A stretch of 60,013 nucleotides of DNA, counting the filler. It is 9 parts of 9 records of this genome, joined end to end, with 100 filler letters (N's around TTAATTAATTAA, not from the genome) between each part and the next. Parts side by side here need not be neighbours in the genome. Positions count along the whole stretch, not along the records: positions 8,542 to 13,674 come from SRR31147125_50586; 8 more parts are not named here. One strand, given 5' to 3'. The position numbers and the translations under genes were made by a program. Under the pieces are notes generated by a model. The model saw nothing but the letters and a program-made list of their open reading frames with translations, searched no databases and had not been told where the DNA came from. Of this stretch, positions 1,515-13,774 are shown piece by piece. The first letter of the stretch is position 1; each line of letters starts with the position of its first letter.

Positions 1515-2915
1515 ATGAGCAAAAAGAACATTATTGTTATCTTGACTGATCAGCTACGATCCCATGCTCTGGGTTGCTATGGGAATCAGGAAATAAAAAC
1601 TCCCCATATCGACAATCTGGCAGGTGAGGGGTTTCTCTTTGATCATATGGTCAGCAACTGCCCTGTCTGCATGCCGGCACGGTCAGCTCTATTATCAGGA
1701 CAATACACCCGGCGCTGTACGGGAAATCTTAATAACCATCATCTGCTGGATGAGAAGGGACGGTGGTACTTCCCGGATCCGCCGGAGCGCACTAGAACTC
1801 AGCTGCCTGACAAGACCTTACCTGAGTTGTTGAAAGAGAGTGGGTACTACAACAAGCTGATCGGGAAATGGCACATACACCCTGAGCCACGACTGGTTGA
1901 TTTCGATTCATGGTGCTACCCACTGGCTTATCATCGATATTACCAGCAGTGCTTCTTCGAAGACGATGCGGCGTATACGGTGGATCAGTTTGCCCCATTC
2001 TTTGAAGCTTACAAAGTCGAAGAGTTTCTGTCTGGATATAACCGTGATGACCCCTTCTTTCTGTTCTATAACATATCTTTACCCCACATGCCTCTTGGAC
2101 AGATTCCCGAAGAGTATGAGAATCTTTATGATCCCGAAGAATTGAGCCTCCGTGGTAATGTACGCTCCGGTGGCGAGGAGTTCGACAAGCAATGGTTGGA
2201 GAACTACATCCAGTTCTACTATCGCGACCAAAAAATACAGGTCTCTGATCGATTTACAAGAGATATGGATCTTCGGAGCGTTACAGCACTCTATCGTGCC
2301 TTTGTGACAATAACTGATGAACTGGTCGGCCGCCTCATGGAGAATCTGGATAAATCTGGATTCTCAGATGACACACTGGTACTGTTCACCAGTGATCATG
2401 GCGATATGCTCGGGTCCCATGGACTCTACAACAAGTCTCAGCTATACGATGAGGCCATTCGGGTACCTCTCATTCTGAACGGTCCCGGTATAGAACCGGG
2501 ACGAAATTCTAAGCAGGTCGGCCAGACAATTGATATACTCCCGACAATACTGGATCATTGCGGTCTCCCGGCTGCAGACCATTCTGATGGACAGTCTCTG
2601 GTTCCGGTAATCAAAGCAGATACAGATACACTTGAAGTGAATCATGCTTTTATCGAGTGTACCAACTACAAAATCGGTATCCGAACGCCTGAATATACCT
2701 ACGGTGTTCAAGTGGATCCTGAGTCTCTGAGTGTAGAAGATGATGCCCTTCAATTCTATGACTGTGAAAATGACCCTTTACAAGAGCGAAATTTGGCGAA
2801 AGATCCTCCGACGAATCTGTCTGGTGTTGCCTCAAAACTCAGGCAACAAGTGATCCGATGGCATAATGAGACACCGTGGTTGGAGAATCCCGACCGATAC
2901 TTAGGAATCGAATAG
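1515..2915 (+). CDS. Formylglycine-dependent (S1) sulfatase
   Basis: NIIVILTDQ, CMPAR (CxPxR), GKWH and SDHG motifs; RBS AGGAG. Confidence 0.95.
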   Translation: MSKKNIIVILTDQLRSHALGCYGNQEIKTPHIDNLAGEGFLFDHMVSNCPVCMPARSALLSGQYTRRCTGNLNNHHLLDEKGRWYFPDPPERTRTQLPDKTLPELLKESGYYNKLIGKWHIHPEPRLVDFDSWCYPLAYHRYYQQCFFEDDAAYTVDQFAPFFEAYKVEEFLSGYNRDDPFFLFYNISLPHMPLGQIPEEYENLYDPEELSLRGNVRSGGEEFDKQWLENYIQFYYRDQKIQVSDRFTRDMDLRSVTALYRAFVTITDELVGRLMENLDKSGFSDDTLVLFTSDHGDMLGSHGLYNKSQLYDEAIRVPLILNGPGIEPGRNSKQVGQTIDILPTILDHCGLPAADHSDGQSLVPVIKADTDTLEVNHAFIECTNYKIGIRTPEYTYGVQVDPESLSVEDDALQFYDCENDPLQERNLAKDPPTNLSGVASKLRQQVIRWHNETPWLENPDRYLGIE

Positions 2916-2916
2916 C

Positions 2917-2946
2917 ATGAATCCTCCCAATGTCATAGTGATCTGA
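2917..2946 (+). pseudogene. N-terminal stub of a second sulfatase
   Basis: ATG 1 nt after the sulfatase stop reads MNPPNVIVI*, the typical sulfatase PNVIVI start. Confidence 0.5.
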
Positions 2947-3022
2947 TCTCATTGTGTAGCCTGATATAGTCTTTGACATGCCCCTCCTTTATTCTACTTC
3001 TAATCAGTTTGCTCTTGATCAT
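2933..3022 (-). pseudogene. N-terminal stub of an L-rhamnose mutarotase-like gene
   Basis: RBS AAGGAG then MIKSKLIRSRIKEGHVKDYIRLHNEI; resembles the RhaM YxRxHxxIW motif, truncated before W. Confidence 0.45.
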
Positions 3023-3350
3023 TCGCGGTTCTCCTTTTAATGCCTTTTCAGGCTCATCATACTCAATTATCTGGAATATACAGATACTCGATCAGGATGT
3101 TCTATGCCGATAATCTGCAATGTCCATCTGATGCAAGATTGCAGCTTCATTTTACGGAGCCATCAACGAGATAAAGCTTTGACCTTGTTTCAATCAGTCA
3201 TCCCCTAAGAATGGGACCCAGAGATATATATCAGGATTGTCCATATTCTCTATTTGTTTGCTCCATTTTTCGCTGCTGAATCACATAGCAACATCATCGT
3301 GGGTGCTGGTCAGACGCAGGTTCTGAGATTAGCATTCAGAAGGAGTTTTC

Positions 3351-4622
3351 ATGAAAAAGCGGATAATTCTGATTTCGGTTTTGTTCCTGGCAGCGGCCTC
3401 ATTGATGGCCAATGGTGGTTCTGATGCTGCTGAGACGGACAAGGTCTCTATCGAACTGCAGACCTGGGTTACGCCAAATCTCACAGTAGAGTATTGGGAA
3501 GGCCTTGTAGCAGAGTTCAACAAAATGTACCCGGATGTAGAAGTTGTAATGAATCAGGCAACCACCGGTGATTCCAACGCTTCTGGTTATCTGAGGACCC
3601 GCCTTGCGGCTGGTGATATGCCGGATGTCATGACCAATTTCACAAGGGAACCGTTCATTGAAGCTGAAGCTTTGATGGCTCTGCCTATCGATGAAGAGGT
3701 AAAACGCCTCAAGAGCCTGAACGGCATGCTTGTTGACGGTAAACTGTATAACTATGACGCCATCGGCAATGTCCACGGTCTTATCTATTTCAATAAAACA
3801 ATGTTTGCCGAAGCCGGTATTGATTCTCTCCCGAAGACCTATGCCGACATGGATGAAGCCTGTGCTAAACTAGCAGCAGCCGGATTCGTTCCTTTCATGA
3901 TGGCTGGTGCTGACTGGGCTGCCGGTTTCAATCTGTCTATCTGGTCAGCTCCTGAAGTTTTCTATGAAAACCAAGTTTGGTATAAAGACAGAAATGAGGG
4001 AAAAGTATCTTTTGCAGAAGACTTCCTGAATCCTCTGACCCGCTTTAAGGAATATGTCGACAAAGGTTACATTTTCAAAGGTGCATTGGGTACCGACTAT
4101 ACCACAGGACAGCAGCTATTCCTTGATGGTGAAGCGGCTATGTATCCCATGGGTGCTTGGTTCTCTGGAGCTCCTGAAGCCATGACTGCAGGTTTCGAAG
4201 TTGGAGTATTTGCTCCGGTAACTGAAGACGGTGGTGCATACTTGGCCGCACCGGCAAACCGAAGTGGTTTTGCTGTAAGCGCCACTACAGAGTTCCCTAA
4301 TGAGTCTATAGCACTTGCGAAATTCCTCGGCTTAAGTCCCTATGCTGTCACTCTGCGGATGAAGACTGATGGTGGTTTCCCAGATATGGAGAATAGTGAA
4401 GATTATCAGTATGAGATGAATCCTATCCAGAAAGAGATTGCCATTCTTTATGATGCCGCTGAGGTGATCACTAACAACCTGAACCATCCCGTGGGCGCAG
4501 CACCGCCGGCAGGTATTGGAGGTGCATTCACTTCGGCTGCACAGACGATTCTGACCGGTGGAAGTGTTGAAGAAGCACTTGAAGAACTAGATTCATTCTG
4601 GGACGACGGTATCAGTCAGTAG
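3351..4622 (+). CDS. Sugar ABC transporter substrate-binding protein (CUT1)
   Basis: Signal peptide ending ANGGSD, AAGDMPDV, YFNKTMFAEAGI, FLDGEAAMY; followed by two permeases. Confidence 0.93.
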   Translation: MKKRIILISVLFLAAASLMANGGSDAAETDKVSIELQTWVTPNLTVEYWEGLVAEFNKMYPDVEVVMNQATTGDSNASGYLRTRLAAGDMPDVMTNFTREPFIEAEALMALPIDEEVKRLKSLNGMLVDGKLYNYDAIGNVHGLIYFNKTMFAEAGIDSLPKTYADMDEACAKLAAAGFVPFMMAGADWAAGFNLSIWSAPEVFYENQVWYKDRNEGKVSFAEDFLNPLTRFKEYVDKGYIFKGALGTDYTTGQQLFLDGEAAMYPMGAWFSGAPEAMTAGFEVGVFAPVTEDGGAYLAAPANRSGFAVSATTEFPNESIALAKFLGLSPYAVTLRMKTDGGFPDMENSEDYQYEMNPIQKEIAILYDAAEVITNNLNHPVGAAPPAGIGGAFTSAAQTILTGGSVEEALEELDSFWDDGISQ

Positions 4623-8441: not shown

Positions 8442-8541
8442 NNNNNNNNNNNNNNNNNNNNNNNNNNNNNNNNNNNNNNNNNNNNTTAATTAATTAANNN
8501 NNNNNNNNNNNNNNNNNNNNNNNNNNNNNNNNNNNNNNNNN
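8442..8541. other. Artificial contig spacer
   Basis: N44-TTAATTAATTAA-N44, giving stops in all six frames. Confidence 0.99.
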
Positions 8542-8562
8542 AAAAGAAAGTTAATCGTTTTT

Positions 8563-8856
8563 TTAAGGCAAACTTGCTATGATATTACGGTATTCCGCCT
8601 CTGGAAAGGCGCGAAGAGTTTCCGTGCGAATATTACCCGCCGAAGCAATCGAAAGAGCTAATTTAGCAACTGTTTCATCATCTGGAGCTTCAATAACAAC
8701 TACAGCATCGTATTGACCCGTTACAAGGTAGTACTCTTTCACCTCAGCACCCATTGCCTGAAATGCTTGTTTGGCTTTATCAAGTCGGTCAGGACCTTCT
8801 TTGATGTTTTCAATACCTTGTTGTGTCATGCGAAGCAGAGAAATATATGTAGCCAT
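8563..8856 (-). CDS. GYD domain protein
   Basis: MATYISLLRMTQQG...TGQYDAVV...GNIRTETLRAF; RBS AGGAGGTG. Confidence 0.9.
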   Translation of the reverse strand: MATYISLLRMTQQGIENIKEGPDRLDKAKQAFQAMGAEVKEYYLVTGQYDAVVVIEAPDDETVAKLALSIASAGNIRTETLRAFPEAEYRNIIASLP

Positions 8857-9744
8857 AATATCACCTCCTTTCATATTTTATCTATCCCTAATGCGTTCCC
8901 TAAAACGCCATTTCTGGGCAACAATGTCCAATTCACCATCGCCGGATTTTACTGGAATATGGTATTTGAATACGGTTCTACTAGTTATATTTTATAATCT
9001 CTGTAATTATCTATTGTAGTATAATCAAAATTATCAAGTGTGAATAGTACCTTTATTTATCCGTGGTTGGCGATACGTCAATTTTTTTATCGATAGGCAG
9101 CTCAATCGATAATTCAATCAGGCGTAGAGTTTGGACTTCTTCGGAAACGAGCTCGTTTGTCTTTTATATTCTATTGCGCCAGGATGACGTTTGTTGGGAA
9201 ACATAACACATCTGTTAAACTAACGATTTAACTTTCGTAAATATGGAGACTATTACAATTGGCGTGATTGCAAAACCGAGCCTGGTCGAGAACTCTTGGT
9301 TTGTATTGGTTATCGGAATATTCGCTTGTAAACGAATTAACGATACAATGCAAATGATAGGTATAAAAACAGCATGAGCTTGATTAGAATGTGGTAAAGC
9401 GTGGTTAGTTTACTGATGTAAATGAATATGATTCGGTGAGATATAAGAATTGAAAACAATATGACATTCTCGTAGTTTTTTGGTATCGATCTTGAATACA
9501 CTTATTTATTTTACCATTGTGTAATCCCCTTACTATATAGGCTAATGTCATAGTCCACTTAAAGTGCTGAATTCGTATTCCCAGAAAATAATCATCTTAC
9601 AAAGTAACATTGGAGCAGGTTCGACTATTCCTATTTAGTGTAGAAAAACATTTACTATGACGAATTCAACAAAAGCTAATAACAACGGTTTTTCGAAAAT
9701 AAAATCTAAATGCAGATGCACAGCCTGAAAGACCAACAATTAAA

Positions 9745-9846
9745 TCAACCGGCGCGAAACATTCTGGATGCCCTGATTCGTATCGAATTAATGCTTTAGA
9801 TAAAAACAATCAAACGAATTCTTCAGGCCGTTTCGCGCCCGGCTGA
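9745..9846. repeat. Long imperfect inverted repeat / stem-loop
   Basis: TCAACCGGCGCGAAAC pairs with GTTTCGCGCCCGGCTGA; nested CCTGA-TTCGT pairs with ACGAA..TCAGG. Confidence 0.6.
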
Positions 9847-9904
9847 ATATAGATCCTGGCGATTTTACATTGATAATCTTTTTTAAAATATGAATTCAAA
9901 AAAA

Positions 9905-10697
9905 TTATTTTAATGCCATACCTTCGCCTGGCATGTGTGATAAATCCGGACGAATGAATCCACTTTTGCGTTCAAACCTTCGAATCACTGTCCAGGTTTT
10001 TTGCATCAGCGCTTGTCCTTCATTGCCAAATGATTTCATATTTTCCATGGATCTTTTTTGAATATCTATAGCATCCTTACCTGATTGCGCTACTAAAAAA
10101 AGCGGAAAATCTGTGCCTATGTCTCCCATGTAAAGACGGAATCCTTCATTGATATTGTTCTTTTCATAAAGTGCTTTCCACTCTTGAGCGATGTTTTTTG
10201 CTGCCTCTTCTTTTCCAGGATGAATATAGTAAAAGTCCCAATGGCGGAAATTTAAACCCGCCGAGATATCCCGACCATATTCCGGGTTGTGGGAAAGTTG
10301 CTCCTGATAACGTAACATAAAATTACGATGCGTATTATACGTCCCATCAAATTTTTTCATAGCGGCCTGAAATACATCAGCACCAGCCTTTTTTTGTAAC
10401 TCTCCAAAGGCGGATTCAAAAAAAGCAGCGCCGGAATAATCTTTCACAGGTGTGAAATAGAAATAGGTGAAATCCATCGCAGACGCACCTGTGAATGTAG
10501 ATGTCAAATTATGCTCTTTAAAAAGTGCTACAACACCCTTGGCTGCCTTTTCATACTGGCCAACCATGCTGGGTATGACCAAATCCTCATGAACAAAAGG
10601 AGCTGTCCCTTGGATTTTTCGTCCTGTGCCTGTGCTGGTAGAAAAGAAAAAAGCAAAAAATCGTGAAAAGTAATAAAGAAAATAATGTATGTTTCAT
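9905..10697 (-). CDS. Secreted hypothetical protein with two apparent frameshifts
   Basis: RBS AAGGAG and signal peptide MKHTLFSLLL; continues LPAQAQDEKSKGQL then VHEDLVIPSMV in other frames, with shifts at T runs. Confidence 0.7.
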
Positions 10698-11490
10698 GAT
10701 ATTTCTCCTTGAAAAAAATAACATTTTGTGGATAGTAAAGGTCCGGAATAATCGATTTAAAGAATTCGATACCTTTTCTGAAAAGTTCAAATTGCAACAT
10801 TAATTATTTTTCATAAAGGAATTTTGACTGATAATAGAGGCGCAGTATCTTATAGATGAGACAATGTGGCAGAGGAAATGTGTAAGGTGAGGAAAAACAG
10901 AATTGGCCATGTATTCGAAAAATTCAGAAGAAAGCTCAAATGATGTCCAGTGATAGTCAAAAAGCCTGGATCACTTTATCATTTTTACATATTTTAATCC
11001 TCCTGGTATAGATTCTTTTTTTTTAGATTTTATTGTGAAATATAAATGCTGTATGGCCCTTTTAAATCTGCTAAATCGTACCGGATTTTTCTACTATTAA
11101 TACAAATCTTTGATTTTCGAACGGTAAAGTCCTTTAAAAGACTCAGGAAGGGAAAAACAGTCAAATGAGGCATTCTATTCCTTGGTGGAAGAGAAAAACG
11201 TAAATTATGGTGAATTCAATACAATTTAAGTTACATTCCAGTCAAGGATGAGTTCGATAAAAAACGTAGATTGATAATATGACTAAAATCAATTTTTAGT
11301 TCATTTTTTAATGACATGATATTTTCTGAGCGAAACTGGTTTACTTATCGTTTCTACCCGATCCCAATAATCAGAACTGGAAAAATTAATAGAATCCAAA
11401 TCAACTTTATAATATCCCGCCTACTGTTGCTTTGGTTTCAGTATAGTTGAAACTGCTATATTTTCTCAAACGCCTTCCTAAAAAGTGACT

Positions 11491-11665
11491 GATTCCACTT
11501 GATCCAGTTACATAGACATCGACTGAGCTATCAACGGTGGTGGCAGTTGCCTCGTCCGAATTCAGCGGCCCATGATAGCGAGCCACCAACTGATCAACTC
11601 TGAAAATATTGTATTTGATGGTGGCGTAATCATAACATATGTCGGAATTATTAGCTAAATCCAGC
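11491..11665 (-). pseudogene. SBBP beta-propeller repeat relic
   Basis: YDYATIKYN...QLVARYHGPLNSDEA..TVDSSVDVYVTGSSG matches the SBBP repeat pattern; no start and degenerate ends. Confidence 0.8.
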
Positions 11666-11802
11666 TATCTTTTGAAGATTAATCAGATTAGAAGGATTCT
11701 ACCATGGCAGTAATAGAAAATTATTAATTTTACTCTTCAATATAATTAACAAAGACAAAACTCCGACTCCCAATCTTTCCTTATTGTAAGTTTAGTGCAT
11801 AT

Positions 11803-11868
11803 GACCATAGGAATGCATAAATTTAATTAGGTTATTAACTTAAATCAAAAAGGAGCATTCCTATGGTC
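11803..11868 (+). promoter_or_regulatory. Hairpin sequestering the RBS edge and start codon of the first DUF1670 gene
   Basis: Perfect 14-bp IR GACCATAGGAATGC (11803-11816) / GCATTCCTATGGTC (11855-11868), covering ATG 11863 and the last G of AGGAG. Confidence 0.75.
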
Positions 11869-12696
11869 GATGTAAAACATAACTATGGCCTAAAACGGCT
11901 AACCTCAAAGACCGCTCGTAATGCGATCATTCAACGGTTAGCTCAAGATTTCAATCTTACTCCAATCATTGCTGAGGCCTACTATCAGCAATTCGATCAA
12001 TACTATCGTGAACACACCAATATTTCTTTATCAAGCGGCGAGATCGCTTATGAAGCAGTCGCTGCTAATGAACCCGCTGGAAAACATATTCGACTGACTC
12101 GAAAAATTACAGTTCGACTGCGTCTTATCGATCTTAATTCCGATCTTGAAGTACTCGCCAATTATGGCCTCGCAGGACTCAGACGTCACCGCATTGCTCG
12201 ACTCACTCGACAGGCTTATGATCAAAACGCTCTACTCAGCTATGAAGACCTGGCCTTGATTTTAACATCCAGTCCCGGAACTGTGAAAAGGGATATCGCT
12301 CATCTCAGGCACCAAGGCATGTTCATCATAACCCGAGGTATGAAACATGATATGGGGCCAGGCTTGTCTCACAAAACCATCATCATTGATCTTTATCTGA
12401 AAAACTATACCTTTTCCGAAATTGAATTAGAAACCAATCATTCTGAATCTTGTGTCAAACGATATCTTGCTGATTTTATCCAGGTCGCGACACTATATGA
12501 ACAAAATTTTTCATTCAATCAGATTCGCCTCATCGCTAAAAAATCGGACCGTTTGGTTCGCGAATACATTCAACTTTACCAAACCTACAAAAAGCAAAAG
12601 AATCAACACCTCCAACAAATCATGCATCCTGCCGAACCTGGTGAGGATGCTAAAAAAATCCATTCCTTAACGGTTATAAGGAGGTCAGCGTCATGA
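11863..12696 (+). CDS. DUF1670 domain protein (multi-HTH)
   Basis: QAYDQNALLSYEDLA, TRGMKHDMGPGLSHK, HSESCVKRYLADF; RBS AGGAG. Confidence 0.85.
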   Translation: MVDVKHNYGLKRLTSKTARNAIIQRLAQDFNLTPIIAEAYYQQFDQYYREHTNISLSSGEIAYEAVAANEPAGKHIRLTRKITVRLRLIDLNSDLEVLANYGLAGLRRHRIARLTRQAYDQNALLSYEDLALILTSSPGTVKRDIAHLRHQGMFIITRGMKHDMGPGLSHKTIIIDLYLKNYTFSEIELETNHSESCVKRYLADFIQVATLYEQNFSFNQIRLIAKKSDRLVREYIQLYQTYKKQKNQHLQQIMHPAEPGEDAKKIHSLTVIRRSAS

Positions 12697-13580
12697 GCAA
12701 GCCATTGACCAAAGAACAAATTCAGCTTAAAAAAATAAGACGTCTTAAAGATAAAAATATCAAACAATTACTGCTTTATCGCTTCCTCAACCATTATGGC
12801 TATGATAAAGGCCAGATCACCGCTCGTGCTATTATTGACGATATTTTAAAACTCATCGAGGACTATTTTCTCGTTACAACCATCGATACGGATCTGCATC
12901 ACATCCATTACGGACAACTTGTCTATATGGCTGTGGATATTGAGGATTATCCCAAAAGAGGTCAGTGCATCGCATCAACACGGCTCAAACCTGTCGTACT
13001 TTCCTTTATGACTGATGATGATGTCTCTCATATCGCACACGGCTTTCAATCTTCCGCTTTGAGAAAAAAGCGTATTAAACGATGGTGCAATGAAGCATTT
13101 GACCAGGGAGGCTTGCTCTCACAGTTAGACCTGAGCATGCTACTTGGTGTCTGTGATGCCGTCGTAAGCAAATATGTCAATGAAATACAAAAAGAAGGAC
13201 ATCTATTGCCAACCAGAGGCAATATACATGATCTCTCTGGAGCAATCACTCATAAAAGGGAAATTATCACTTTGTATCTCGAAGGGTACTTGACACCTGA
13301 AATTGCTGTCAAAACAAAACACAGCCACGAGTCCGTTGATCGTTACATCAAAGATTACCACCGCGTCGAAATGCTCTGGCAAAACAACATCACCGATCTC
13401 GATCAAATCAGCCAACTTGCACGATTATCTAAGAAAGTCGTGCAGCAGTATATTGATCTCTTGCCTGATAAATATAAAATAAATTCAAAGAACAAAAATA
13501 TTGACTCTGGTGAAAAATCTAATAACTTAAATGTGTCCGGTGAAACGGAGGTGGGCTCTGCTGAGGAGCAACCCGCTTAG
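12693..13580 (+). CDS. DUF1670 domain protein (paralog, translationally coupled)
   Basis: EAFDQGGLLSQLDL, PTRGNIHDLSGAITHK, HSHESVDRYIKDY; ATGA overlap and RBS AAGGAGGT. Confidence 0.85.
   Translation: MSKPLTKEQIQLKKIRRLKDKNIKQLLLYRFLNHYGYDKGQITARAIIDDILKLIEDYFLVTTIDTDLHHIHYGQLVYMAVDIEDYPKRGQCIASTRLKPVVLSFMTDDDVSHIAHGFQSSALRKKRIKRWCNEAFDQGGLLSQLDLSMLLGVCDAVVSKYVNEIQKEGHLLPTRGNIHDLSGAITHKREIITLYLEGYLTPEIAVKTKHSHESVDRYIKDYHRVEMLWQNNITDLDQISQLARLSKKVVQQYIDLLPDKYKINSKNKNIDSGEKSNNLNVSGETEVGSAEEQPA
13501..13528 (+). promoter_or_regulatory. Candidate sigma70 promoter inside the 3' end of the second DUF1670 gene
   Basis: TTGACT-N16-TAACTT; a start about 7 nt downstream falls on the first base of the hairpin (G13535). 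Confidence 0.35.
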
Positions 13581-13651
13581 GGATAACCGGACCGAAAGAA
13601 ATGTTCGGGAGGATAATCTATATTCTCCCGACTTTTATATTTTTTCTTTCG
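13535..13651 (+). ncRNA. Candidate structured ncRNA or element end (two adjacent hairpins)
   Basis: Hairpin 1: GTCCGGT/ACCGGAC, 7x7 purine-rich internal loop, AGGTGGG/CCCGCTT. Hairpin 2: CGAAAGAAA/TTTCTTTCG enclosing TCGGGAGGATA/TATTCTCCCGA plus a T tract. Confidence 0.45.
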
Positions 13652-13674
13652 ATATGCCTTTAAAACCTTTCTTT

Positions 13675-13774
13675 NNNNNNNNNNNNNNNNNNNNNNNNNN
13701 NNNNNNNNNNNNNNNNNNTTAATTAATTAANNNNNNNNNNNNNNNNNNNNNNNNNNNNNNNNNNNNNNNNNNNN
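13675..13774. other. Artificial contig spacer
   Basis: N run with TTAATTAATTAA. Confidence 0.99.

Follow-up and report, generated by a model that had tools for sequence, protein, structure and literature searches.

Paired DUF1670 genes as the sole genes of a probable insertion-sequence-like family found at the ends of type IX sorting-domain genes

Results

A DUF1670 gene pair and its flanking features

The window, the whole 60,013-nucleotide stretch of DNA that was analysed, is a chain of contigs, and the contig carrying the locus described here stops at 13674. The locus comprises two consecutive genes for DUF1670 proteins, bordered by folded segments and, on the left, by a repeat that recurs at many other loci. 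Its features, in window positions, are as follows.

11780-11786, minus strand: left flank CTTATTG, a putative target remnant whose minus-strand reading, CAA TAA, would be a last codon and stop (by analogy with 45 of 48 sites in relatives, and from the left-flank pattern)
11787-11811, plus strand: left terminus of the element, formed by the imperfect inverted repeat TAAGTTTAGTGCATATGACCATAGG, whose conserved core is ATGACCATAGG (from alignments, end motif and empty site)
11803-11868, plus strand: fold-back hairpin with its 5' arm (11803-11816) in the left end, its 3' arm at 11855-11868 and a 38-nt loop (from folding and from pairing in relatives)
11863-12696, plus strand: gene A, DUF1670 protein of 277 aa (PF07900, E 1.5e-57, 195 bits)
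12652-12658, plus strand: poly-A run, A7 here and A9 in most relatives and in a source-like contig; candidate transcriptional-slippage site (from the alignment of relatives)
12693-13580, plus strand: gene B, encoding a 295-aa DUF1670 protein and preceded by a strong Shine-Dalgarno sequence, AAGGAGG (PF07900, E 1.9e-60, 204.5 bits)
13536-13674, plus strand: conserved folded 3' module, cut off by the contig end (from covariation)
13536-13592, plus strand: 5' domain of the 3' module, with P1, P2 and P2b (from folds and alignment)
13593-13655, plus strand: long hairpin with inner stem 13605-13631, followed by the conserved tail ATGCCTTTAAAACC (from single-sequence folds)

Both proteins score above the PF07900 gathering score of 25 bits as full-length members and are 33% identical to each other over 196 aa (E 2e-29), which bears out the two DUF1670 paralogs seen in an earlier note on this DNA; together they span 11863-13580. 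The motifs that this note saw shared by A and B are real and conserved across 85 family members, in which H187, H210 and Y218 (B numbering) are invariant and R130, P173, G176, D180, G182 and K188 are at least 90% conserved. Relative to the closest relative of the window copy (L014), dN/dS is 0.047 for gene A and 0.032 for gene B; both genes are under strong purifying selection. DUF1670 carries no functional annotation in Pfam, and we found no paper for 'DUF1670' or 'PF07900' among about 8.4 million full texts; some sources label homologs 'biotin operon repressor' or 'transcriptional regulator'. The AlphaFold model of B (pLDDT 85) consists of helix-turn-helix (HTH) modules and one beta hairpin. 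Y218 and H210 fall within an HTH_23-like helix-turn-helix, with an equivalent tyrosine in the next repeat, and the invariant tyrosine and one invariant histidine may thus serve structure or DNA contact. Prediction of an A+B complex scored 0.33 against a mark of 0.34, a value that argues neither for binding nor against it.

The ATGA overlap of the two genes is present in the window as originally described; it depends, however, on the A7 run at 12652-12658, relatives having A9 and an 8-nt overlap, ATGAGTAA. Because of the A7 run, the C-terminal tail of the window's gene A is irregular, departing from the canonical sequence after about residue 262, and a contig from the run that is the probable source is longer by two A at this position. 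A run of A7 to A11 occurs here in 52 of 54 distinct elements, with the B frame open across it in 50 of 52, and this conservation suggests an A-B fusion made by slippage; PMC1088944 describes IS elements in which a conserved A9 run joins orfA to orfB. DUF1670 fusions of two and three domains occur naturally, the order A then B being clear in two of seven two-domain proteins. The proposed heteromeric action of A and B is plausible, given the conserved gene order, these fusions and an A-run that could join both proteins.

To the left, the 85-aa fragment at 11407-11664 (minus strand) has no Pfam match at E <= 0.01, so its reading as a broken SBBP gene reflects resemblance only and was not confirmed. 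A sigma-70 promoter scan found no excess of sites over shuffled sequence, and no site within the left end.

The gene pair lies within a mobile element

In one 6.5-Mb chromosome (G001), six dispersed copies of the element, in both orientations, are 99.7-100% identical over 1855-1881 bp, and a Melioribacteraceae genome (G002) holds three near-identical copies with sharp ends. Dispersed near-identical copies with common sharp boundaries, the general hallmark of insertion sequences, are therefore found in relatives of the window copy. An uninterrupted paralog of an occupied site (L010:503-950) fixes both junctions to the base and reveals no duplication. Together, the dispersed identical copies, the sharp ends and the exact empty site show that the DUF1670-pair element is mobile. 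The left and right end motifs are confined to the six copies in the complete chromosome G001, each found in 6 of 6 at <=3 mismatches, with no other bearer. A and B are the only long ORFs in a gene-orientation scan of 57 complete elements, a set that includes exact duplicates and one locus (L006) whose right end was mis-set by script.

In the window, the left end lies at 11787, since alignments to many loci begin at 11781-11790, and the position of the tip derives from the L010 empty site and from 58 loci having both ends. The left-end motif occurs once in the window, against 0.01 occurrences expected, and the right-end motif occurs nowhere in it; the window thus holds the left end only. Placed from the closest relative, the right end of this element of about 1.9 kb would lie some 45-50 nt past the contig break, and the target gene beyond it. 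We conclude that 11787 to beyond 13674 is probably one copy of an undescribed insertion-sequence-like family of 1.8-2.0 kb, whose only genes are two paralogous DUF1670 genes; this best explanation takes in mobility, targeting and an inferred DUF1670-driven mechanism.

The compact mobile element with a DUF1670 pair that the earlier note had put forward is accordingly upheld by the checks it had itself proposed, namely multicopy occurrence, sharp boundaries and an empty-site allele, and its start at 11790 falls within 3 nt of the true left end. In the window's own genome, the depth of the pair equals that of its 22.5-kb contig (34.6), so the pair is possibly present there once. No circle junctions or joints were seen in the assembled contigs matched to the region, a type of data that cannot show rare forms.

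Ends are inverted repeats with palindromic sites

The ends of the relatives are imperfect inverted repeats of about 25 bp, each with a palindromic putative protein-binding site. On the left, ...CATATGACCATAGG is the partner of CCT(C/A)TGGTCATATG... on the right, and both ends are present in 58 loci; the inverted-repeat core lies inside the palindromic site at each end. That no terminal inverted repeat had been visible is an artefact, because the contig stops about 45-50 nt short of the right end. A subfamily 43-50% identical keeps the same gene pair, target and right tip with a different end palindrome (GTATCAnnTGATAC), so that proteins and ends co-evolve.

Insertion falls at the final codon of type IX sorting-domain genes

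Of 48 distinct sites, 45 coincide with the final codon or the stop of a gene, and in 45 of 48 the stop keeps its codon position whether the site is filled or rebuilt as empty. Por_Secre_tail was detected in all ten right-flank ORFs tested, nine of them above the cut-off. Insertion thus has a single orientation, duplicates no target sequence and falls on the final codon or the stop of genes that end in a type IX secretion sorting domain. The right tip of the element rebuilds the target's last codon and a TAG stop, and therefore the target gene stays whole.

Tip and flank co-vary: TTT tips accompany TTT or CTT flanks at 34 of 36 sites, TCG tips TCG or GCG flanks at 5 of 5, and TTA tips TTA or CTA flanks at 5 of 5. 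One locus (L019) combines the tip AGA TAG with the flank CGG TAA, the same Arg-stop in different bases, which favours selection for harmless insertion over a homology-driven mechanism; the match between tip and target may have no part in the mechanism. Within a family the right tip does not vary, while the left flank does. We considered whether tip-target identity is a true target-site duplication and rejected this, as identical copies at L010, L005 and further loci have a left flank that differs from the right tip. The empty-site paralog leaves a duplication of 0 bp, with at most an ambiguous TT, confirming in a relative the absence of a target-site duplication noted from the window. By analogy with these sites, the gene ending CAA TAA at 11780-11786 would have its body beyond the missing right end. 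In addition, the A and B proteins would read the conserved DNA in which the secretion tail is encoded.

A conserved hairpin covers the start of gene A

The arms of the left hairpin form a perfect 14-bp inverted repeat, and the 3' arm covers the ATG of gene A and part of its Shine-Dalgarno sequence. Its fold of -32.5 kcal/mol (z -6.3) was matched by none of 200 shuffles, while a control stretch just upstream gave a z of 0.02. Across 40 relatives, 76.7% of cells pair, compared with 35-45% when the arms are slid, and 13 cells in the core are G-U pairs, which indicates an RNA-level role. The hairpin would silence gene A translation on transcripts reading in from outside, as in IS10 and IS200; a comparable stem sequestering the Shine-Dalgarno sequence in the IS200 5' UTR is described in PMC4513863. 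The earlier claim of a hairpin over the first start codon is therefore sound.

The 3' module is a conserved but optional RNA-like fold

The "double hairpin" described over the last stop codon is likewise real and forms part of the conserved folded 3' module, in which 98.4% of cells pair and both sides change in 7 of 14 pairs, a value reached by none of 500 shuffles. RNAalifold on the whole module yielded its 5' domain only, because the length of the 3' hairpin varies too much for an alignment; this hairpin was judged from single-sequence folds and was cut too short in six rows. The covariance model built for the module (R1) scores 80.3 bits at the window copy. Across 155 distinct genomes, R1 matched only DUF1670-element copies or a remnant right end beside a gene with a type IX-like tail, and in five whole genomes, including the two with the six- and three-copy families, its sole match was at one element (L007) in G003. 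Rfam gave no match at E <= 1 inside the elements of four loci (L014, L020, L001 and L010). Several complete elements have just 55-56 nt from the B stop to the right tip.

Since element families with six identical copies lack the module, it is not a required RNA cofactor, the role for which the hairpins had been suggested. The module may be an optional accessory, possibly a terminator or an insulator against the converging target gene. In run X1, a second locus, on a 12.9-kb contig, shares 13537-13573 and 13632-13674 with the window, at double depth.

No known recombination domain in A or B

Pfam gave only DUF1670 and weak HTH matches for A and B, and NCBIfam no transposase model. Foldseek against the PDB returned no match at E <= 0.001, its best matches being HTH modules; a transposase, topoisomerase or recombinase fold was not among them. 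The sole PDB sequence match was a designed HTH repeat protein, the ESM Atlas gave only HTH_23-type clusters at 0.82 or less, and PHROGs and PADLOC gave only marginal HTH-type matches (E >= 0.001). In agreement with the first reading of the locus, which saw no DDE, HUH, serine or tyrosine recombinase motif, neither protein matches a recognised transposase type (DDE, DEDD, HUH, Ser or Tyr) in Pfam, NCBIfam or Foldseek. The rve domain and 3-4 bp duplications of IS3, the Y1 HUH domain (PF01797) and subterminal hairpins at both ends of IS200/IS605, and the DEDD domain and required guide RNA of IS110/IS1111 are all lacking. The Phage_integrase fold with its R-K-H-R-H/W-Y residues was found in neither Pfam nor Foldseek; an NCBIfam hit to XerS reached 15 bits against a cut-off of 267 and fell on the non-catalytic N-terminus. 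The 'HS..RY' motif was tried as box II of a tyrosine recombinase, to which its spacing is similar, but was rejected because the segment aligns as an HTH_23-like repeat.

Alternative explanations and proposed mechanism

In A/B heteromers or a slippage-made A-B fusion, the multi-HTH DUF1670 proteins would bind the end palindromes and would themselves carry out conservative breakage and joining, integrase-like or otherwise. The best candidate for a functional centre is the conserved RGxxHD...THK...HS...RY region. We tentatively propose, as a possibility of somewhat less than even weight, that DUF1670 is a new class of transposase or site-specific recombinase built only of HTH modules, with an A/B heteromer or fusion whose centre is His/Lys/His (and Asp/Arg/Tyr) and which inserts conservatively at a motif in genes for type IX-secreted proteins.

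An unlikely alternative is that the element is mobile but non-autonomous, DUF1670 only binding (ends, target, repression) while a host enzyme, such as a Xer-type recombinase, or the transposase of another element cuts and joins. The proteins do look like pure multi-HTH DNA binders without a catalytic fold, duplication-free insertion at a short core resembles the work of conservative recombinases, which occur in every genome, and G002, the second multicopy genome, has a Y1 transposase gene (12 hits). However, the ends belong to no further element in the complete chromosome G001, where a single Y1_Tnp gene, interrupted by a stop, and one weak match were found. MAGs labelled Anaerolineaceae, Saprospiraceae and Melioribacteraceae contain elements whose proteins are 72-91% identical, which makes a host-specific helper less likely, and the invariance or near-invariance of H187, K188 and H210 at only 25% identity is unusual for mere operator contacts. 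That the genes are instead resident, paired transcription regulators might be read from the HTH-only proteins, the regulator-type names of some homologs and a pair that is possibly single-copy here; for the family this is refuted, to near certainty, by the dispersed identical copies, sharp ends and empty site, to which contig breaks at the ends and a patchy distribution can be added.

The analogy first drawn for this locus was a single-strand element of the IS200/IS605 or IS91 kind, using terminal hairpins as its ends. Insertion without duplication, immediately 3' of a short specific sequence, and the similar sequence forming the right tip agree with it, but HUH and Y1 domains are lacking, no hairpin forms at the right tip, and the true termini are inverted repeats whose palindromic sites are of the duplex type. 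In the left hairpin the loop measures 38 nt and the second arm falls on the start codon, about 50 nt into the element, and the 3' module is missing from actively multicopy families; this analogy is largely refuted and very improbable. Equally hard to sustain is a 3' RNA acting as a guide or bridge cofactor that programs the choice of target in the manner of IS110/IS1111. An RNA-like module with strong covariation does sit beside the right end, and target and right tip do co-vary, but elements with 55-56 nt between B stop and tip use the same target, inspection by eye found no complementarity to target or ends, and R1 missed both multicopy genomes among the five searched.

Comparison with known systems

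The element whose breakage and joining DUF1670 would drive has partial counterparts among known systems. Tn7, in its attTn7 (TnsD) pathway, inserts in a specific orientation at a fixed distance from conserved coding sequence at the 3' end of a gene that stays intact; it makes a 5-bp duplication, requires TnsABC+D and has one target per genome. The DUF1670 element shares the oriented insertion at the 3' end of an intact gene, but its target is a short motif in dozens of secretion-tail genes, and the last codon is rebuilt by the element. Tn554 (TnpA/TnpB) and XerC/XerD are paired paralogous tyrosine recombinases, likewise with two paralogs, no duplication, oriented integration and a short core at both junctions. 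Unlike in a symmetric overlap exchange, however, the right-junction core stays element-type in 9 of 9 copies of two families, and Pfam, NCBIfam and Foldseek show no tyrosine-recombinase catalytic domain.

Elements of the IS3/IS1 type are similarly small, with inverted-repeat ends, two consecutive overlapping ORFs and a slippery A-run for a one-base fusion (PMC1088944), and share a 5' structure hiding the start site. In contrast to them, the DUF1670 element has no DDE/RNase H domain, TG...CA tips or 3-4 bp duplication, its two ORFs are paralogs, and a strong ribosome-binding site belongs to B itself. IS200/IS605 elements likewise make no duplication, insert on the 3' side of a short specific sequence and have a 5' UTR stem sequestering the Shine-Dalgarno sequence (PMC4513863), but the DUF1670 element has no Y1 HUH transposase or right subterminal hairpin, and both its ends are inverted repeats.

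Significance and distribution

The element behaves unusually in that it finds the last codon of a gene class to the base and repairs the interruption; it thereby offers a naturally occurring 'safe-landing' insertion system and can mark genes that carry a type IX secretion tail. To our knowledge, all characterised prokaryotic transposable elements rely on a handful of catalytic folds; an abundant and widespread element whose only proteins show none of these folds implies either new breakage-and-joining chemistry or an undescribed borrowing of a host enzyme. DUF1670 gains its first functional context, and recurrent assembly breaks at these loci, including the one that ends this contig, are explained.

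We found 835 close homologs of A and, for B, 1022 family representatives at E <= 0.001, and a tblastn search with B gave no match in a plasmid collection. PF07900 is patchily distributed, occurring in 9 of 301 genomes of one phylum, and includes fragments and broken copies there. For 103 of the 120 best homologs, the longest contig is <= 3 kb, which is suggestive only, contigs of that collection being generally short. Head-to-tail tandems of the element are present at two loci, L025 and L064.

Gene content of the element locus

The window joins nine contigs, so features near the linkers are cut by assembly and not by biology; the element locus forms the right end of contig 8542–13674. Two paralogous genes, A and B, share 33% identity at the protein level (E = 2e-29).

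Features of the element locus and linkers in the window
11787, plus strand: left end of the element (end motif; register from the empty site at locus L010 and from 58 two-ended loci)
11863–12696, plus strand: ORF A, 277 aa, full-length DUF1670 (PF07900, E = 1.5e-57)
12693–13580, plus strand: ORF B, 295 aa, full-length DUF1670 (PF07900, E = 1.9e-60)
8442–8541, 13675–13774 and six further places, no strand: linkers, N44 + TTAATTAATTAA + N44

Together with the fold statistics reported below, the PF07900 matches show that the DUF1670 pair with terminal folds described in an earlier note is real. Against NCBIfam, whose models are used for naming IS transposases, ORF A gave no match and ORF B matched only XerS, at 15 bits against a cut-off of 267. 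The neighboring minus-strand fragment 11407–11664, previously read as an "SBBP" gene, had no match in Pfam, leaving that name unconfirmed. The 1.1 kb or so lying left of the element (10700–11860) lacks ORFs longer than 85 aa in every frame and is possibly decayed coding sequence. The same contig carries an intact GYD-domain protein at 8563–8877 on the minus strand (PF08734, E = 6e-32).

Relatives occur as dispersed, near-identical copies

At E ≤ 0.001, gene A had 835 homologs; identity was 72–91% among the best 120, of which 103 had a longest contig of at most 3 kb. Among species-representative genomes, close relatives are encoded at 13 loci, six of them in one complete 6.5-Mb chromosome (G001) and three in a Melioribacteraceae MAG. 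The six chromosomal copies have 1855–1881 bp in common at 99.7–100% identity and lie in both orientations, with flanks that are unrelated from the first base outside the element; the three Melioribacteraceae copies share 1855–1860 bp at 98–99% identity. L010, a locus with a relative, also holds a paralog of its insertion site that carries no element. Comparison of the empty site (...AAAATTACTT|GAGTAAC...) with the filled one (...AAAATTACTT|AAAGTTTAGG...CACTATTT|GAGTAAC...) shows that insertion was exact, with zero duplication or at most an ambiguous TT, as the absence of target duplication in the earlier note had it. Multicopy occurrence, sharp boundaries and an empty-site allele were thus all found in relatives, bearing out the proposal of a compact, undescribed mobile element. 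A search of the complete chromosome for the end motifs, allowing up to three mismatches, found none beyond the six copies.

The same chromosome also carries a second family of DUF1670 pairs, with seven members, two of which directly adjoin first-family copies; the other multicopy genome holds 3 + 4 copies.

Second-family copies in the complete chromosome (G001:C1)
508098–509547
987401–988850
1348442–1349891
four more copies

Of 301 genomes sampled within a single phylum, 9 contained PF07900, in many cases as contig-end fragments or broken copies. One 3.6-kb contig carries two adjacent DUF1670 pairs in opposite orientation (L079:188–1740 and 1805–3468).

Ends of the element

A metagenome scan yielded 80 loci, and both ends, spaced 1.76–1.96 kb apart, are present at 58 loci. 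The left end follows the consensus (A/T)AAGTTTAGnnCATATGACCATAGG and the right end CCT(C/A)TGGTCATATGA(T/C)ACTATTT, forming imperfect inverted repeats about 25 bp long whose invariant core, ATGACCATAGG, lies within a palindrome. In a subfamily at 43–50% protein identity, the A–B order, the target and the ACTATTT tip are kept and the end palindrome differs (GTATCAnnTGATAC), which argues that proteins and ends co-evolve. The window aligns with its closest relative, L014, over 11781–13670 at 79% DNA identity, and the right end of L014 lies about 45 nt beyond the point matching 13670. The window's contig stops short of the element's right end, and no right-end motif occurs anywhere in the window. 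The earlier note had seen no TIR and had taken the hairpins as ends or RNA cofactor; the actual ends are these imperfect inverted repeats, present in relatives, the right one lying past the end of the window's contig.

Insertion at the ends of type IX secretion genes

We reconstructed 48 distinct insertion sites by splicing their flanks together. For 45 (exceptions L002, L020 and L048), the opposite strand carries an open frame that stops at one and the same codon whether the site is empty or filled. The target C-terminal peptides resemble ...T-K-K-M-x-L-L-K-stop, and Por_Secre_tail, the type IX secretion sorting domain, sits at the very end of all 10 right-flank ORFs tested, nine scoring above the cut-off and L007 reaching 21.9 bits versus 27. 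The element is always antisense to the target gene, and on the target's strand its right tip provides the final codon followed by a TAG stop (AAA TAG, CGA TAG or TAA TAG). The left flank of the window copy, CTTATTG, reads CAA TAA on the minus strand and fits this pattern; its target gene lies beyond the contig end. Searching the literature for insertion sequences sited at the ends of type IX secretion genes gave no relevant paper.

The right tip also co-varies with the left flank. Tips TTT are paired with flanks TTT (27) or CTT (7), with 2 exceptions, tips TCG with TCG (3) or GCG (2), and tips TTA with TTA (3) or CTA (2); at 45 of the 48 sites, tip and flank are identical in their last two bases. 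We rejected a duplication as the source of this match, since the right tip is constant within a family while the left flank varies. The match could reflect a homology-requiring, integrase-like step, or it could reflect selection for harmless insertions; the latter gains from L019, where tip AGA TAG and flank CGG TAA encode the same residues with different bases. At L025:1536–1560 and L064:632–655, an element is inserted head-to-tail immediately after another copy's right tip, as would follow from a tip that mimics the target. In lacking a duplication, keeping to one orientation and sharing a short core, the mode of insertion resembles that of a site-specific integrating element, and the architecture and regulation resemble those of an insertion sequence.

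DUF1670 proteins

Both genes are under strong purifying selection (dN/dS against L014 of 0.047 for A and 0.032 for B). The AlphaFold model of B (pLDDT 85, pTM 0.58) comprises three N-terminal helices, a beta hairpin, a winged helix-turn-helix, the loop LPxRGxxHDxGxxxTHK and two HTH_23-like repeats. Foldseek returned no PDB match for this model at E ≤ 0.001, the best being MntR, the Pax paired domain, RcsB and sigma region 4, and the ESM Atlas gave HTH_23 clusters only (≤0.82). A profile search of PDB sequences matched solely 8vd6, probably a designed HTH repeat protein, judging by its repeat sequence and by a protein-design paper among those that name 8VD6. Residues H187, H210 and Y218 (B numbering) are invariant and R130, P173, G176, D180, G182 and K188 nearly so; an alignment led by A gave the same picture. 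Y218, which corresponds to Y253 of the following repeat, may be structural. The leading candidate for a functional center, possibly a catalytic one, is the His/Lys/Asp/Arg loop. No literature naming DUF1670 or PF07900 turned up among about 8.4 million full texts.

A hairpin over the start of gene A and a poly-A run before gene B

A perfect 14-bp inverted repeat (11803–11816 with 11855–11868) encloses the Shine–Dalgarno sequence and covers the ATG. Its fold (−32.5 kcal/mol, z = −6.3) was equaled by 0 of 200 shuffles, and a control just upstream gave z = 0.02. The hairpin is conserved. Among 40 elements, pairing holds in 76.7% of the cells at the 14 pairs, compared with 35–45% for a slid partner, and eight core pairs are kept in 26–36 of 37 rows. 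Changes on both sides affect 25 cells, a number reached by 2 of 500 shuffles; in L067, ATG to GTG is accompanied by T to C in the other arm. Thirteen G–U cells carry the G in the 5′ arm, a pairing that works only in plus-strand RNA. A scan for sigma-70-like promoters found none. The hairpin would act by fold-back inhibition, for which IS10 is a comparable case: a transcript from outside would carry both arms and hide the start site. For IS200, PMC4513863 describes repression of the transposase by a stem sequestering the Shine–Dalgarno sequence.

About 43 nt ahead of the B start, 52 of 54 distinct elements carry a run of A7–A11.

Lengths of the poly-A run
A9: 28 elements
A8: 11 elements
A7: 7 elements
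A10: 4 elements
A11: 2 elements

In 51 of the 52 the run precedes the A stop, in 50 the B frame reads through it without a stop, and in 49 B occupies the same relative frame; given this conserved position and frame, an mRNA losing one A would fuse A to B. Conserved runs of 8–10 A serve such fusion in IS elements, according to Baranov et al. (PMC1088944). Natural DUF1670 fusions have two domains (~505–545 aa) or three (~930–950 aa) and give DUF1670 and HTH signals alone; the A-then-B order is clear in two of seven two-domain proteins. The window has A7 at 12652–12658, and a contig of sequencing run X1 has two more A, reflecting an error of assembly or else genuine variation in length at a slippery run; L013 likewise has A10 and its sister copies A9. 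The ATGA overlap of the earlier note is thus present in the window but depends on the assembly, and relatives overlap by ATGAGTAA.

A conserved folded module at the 3′ end

The 3′ region of the window folds with z = −2.7, and the module at 13536–13674 was recovered at 30 places, namely 29 loci and the window. In its 5′ domain (P1, P2 and P2b), 98.4% of cells are paired, and 7 of 14 pairs (36 cells) have changed on both sides, which 0 of 500 shuffles equaled; slid controls reached 18–50%. The 3′ part, a long hairpin with an inner stem, keeps its shape with wholly different sequence among elements, and a conserved tail, ATGCCTnAAAAACC, comes next. Its conservation does not come from coding, as the module lies wholly beyond the B stop in several relatives. 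An Rfam search with the elements of L014, L020, L001 and L010 found no match, and our model of the module, R1, matched the window once, at 80.3 bits.

Contigs of run X1, which may be the source of the window, likewise end at 13674. There, the DUF1670 genes match their 22.5-kb contig in depth (34.6), 13537–13573 and 13632–13674 have about double depth, and a second contig of 12.9 kb ends in the same last 43 nt. The break therefore arises because the 3′ module and right end are repeated: another element of the window's genome shares both, and the gene pair may be single-copy.

The module is absent from the families with six and three identical copies and is thus not needed for movement. The "double hairpin" of the earlier note is real as part of a conserved module, which is optional and so no required RNA cofactor. 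The inner stem in the window is terminator-like. The module may serve as a terminator, or as an insulator where the target gene converges on the element. Among 151 genomes from a single phylum the module matched twice, once in a DUF1670 element. The other match (L095:1262–1676, in a high-GC genome) scores 40 bits, has a right-end-like tip, GGTACTACCG, and immediately follows a gene encoding a FlgD_ig/type IX-like tail; with DUF1670 genes absent from this locus, it looks like a decayed or miniature derivative, a gene-less right-end remnant.
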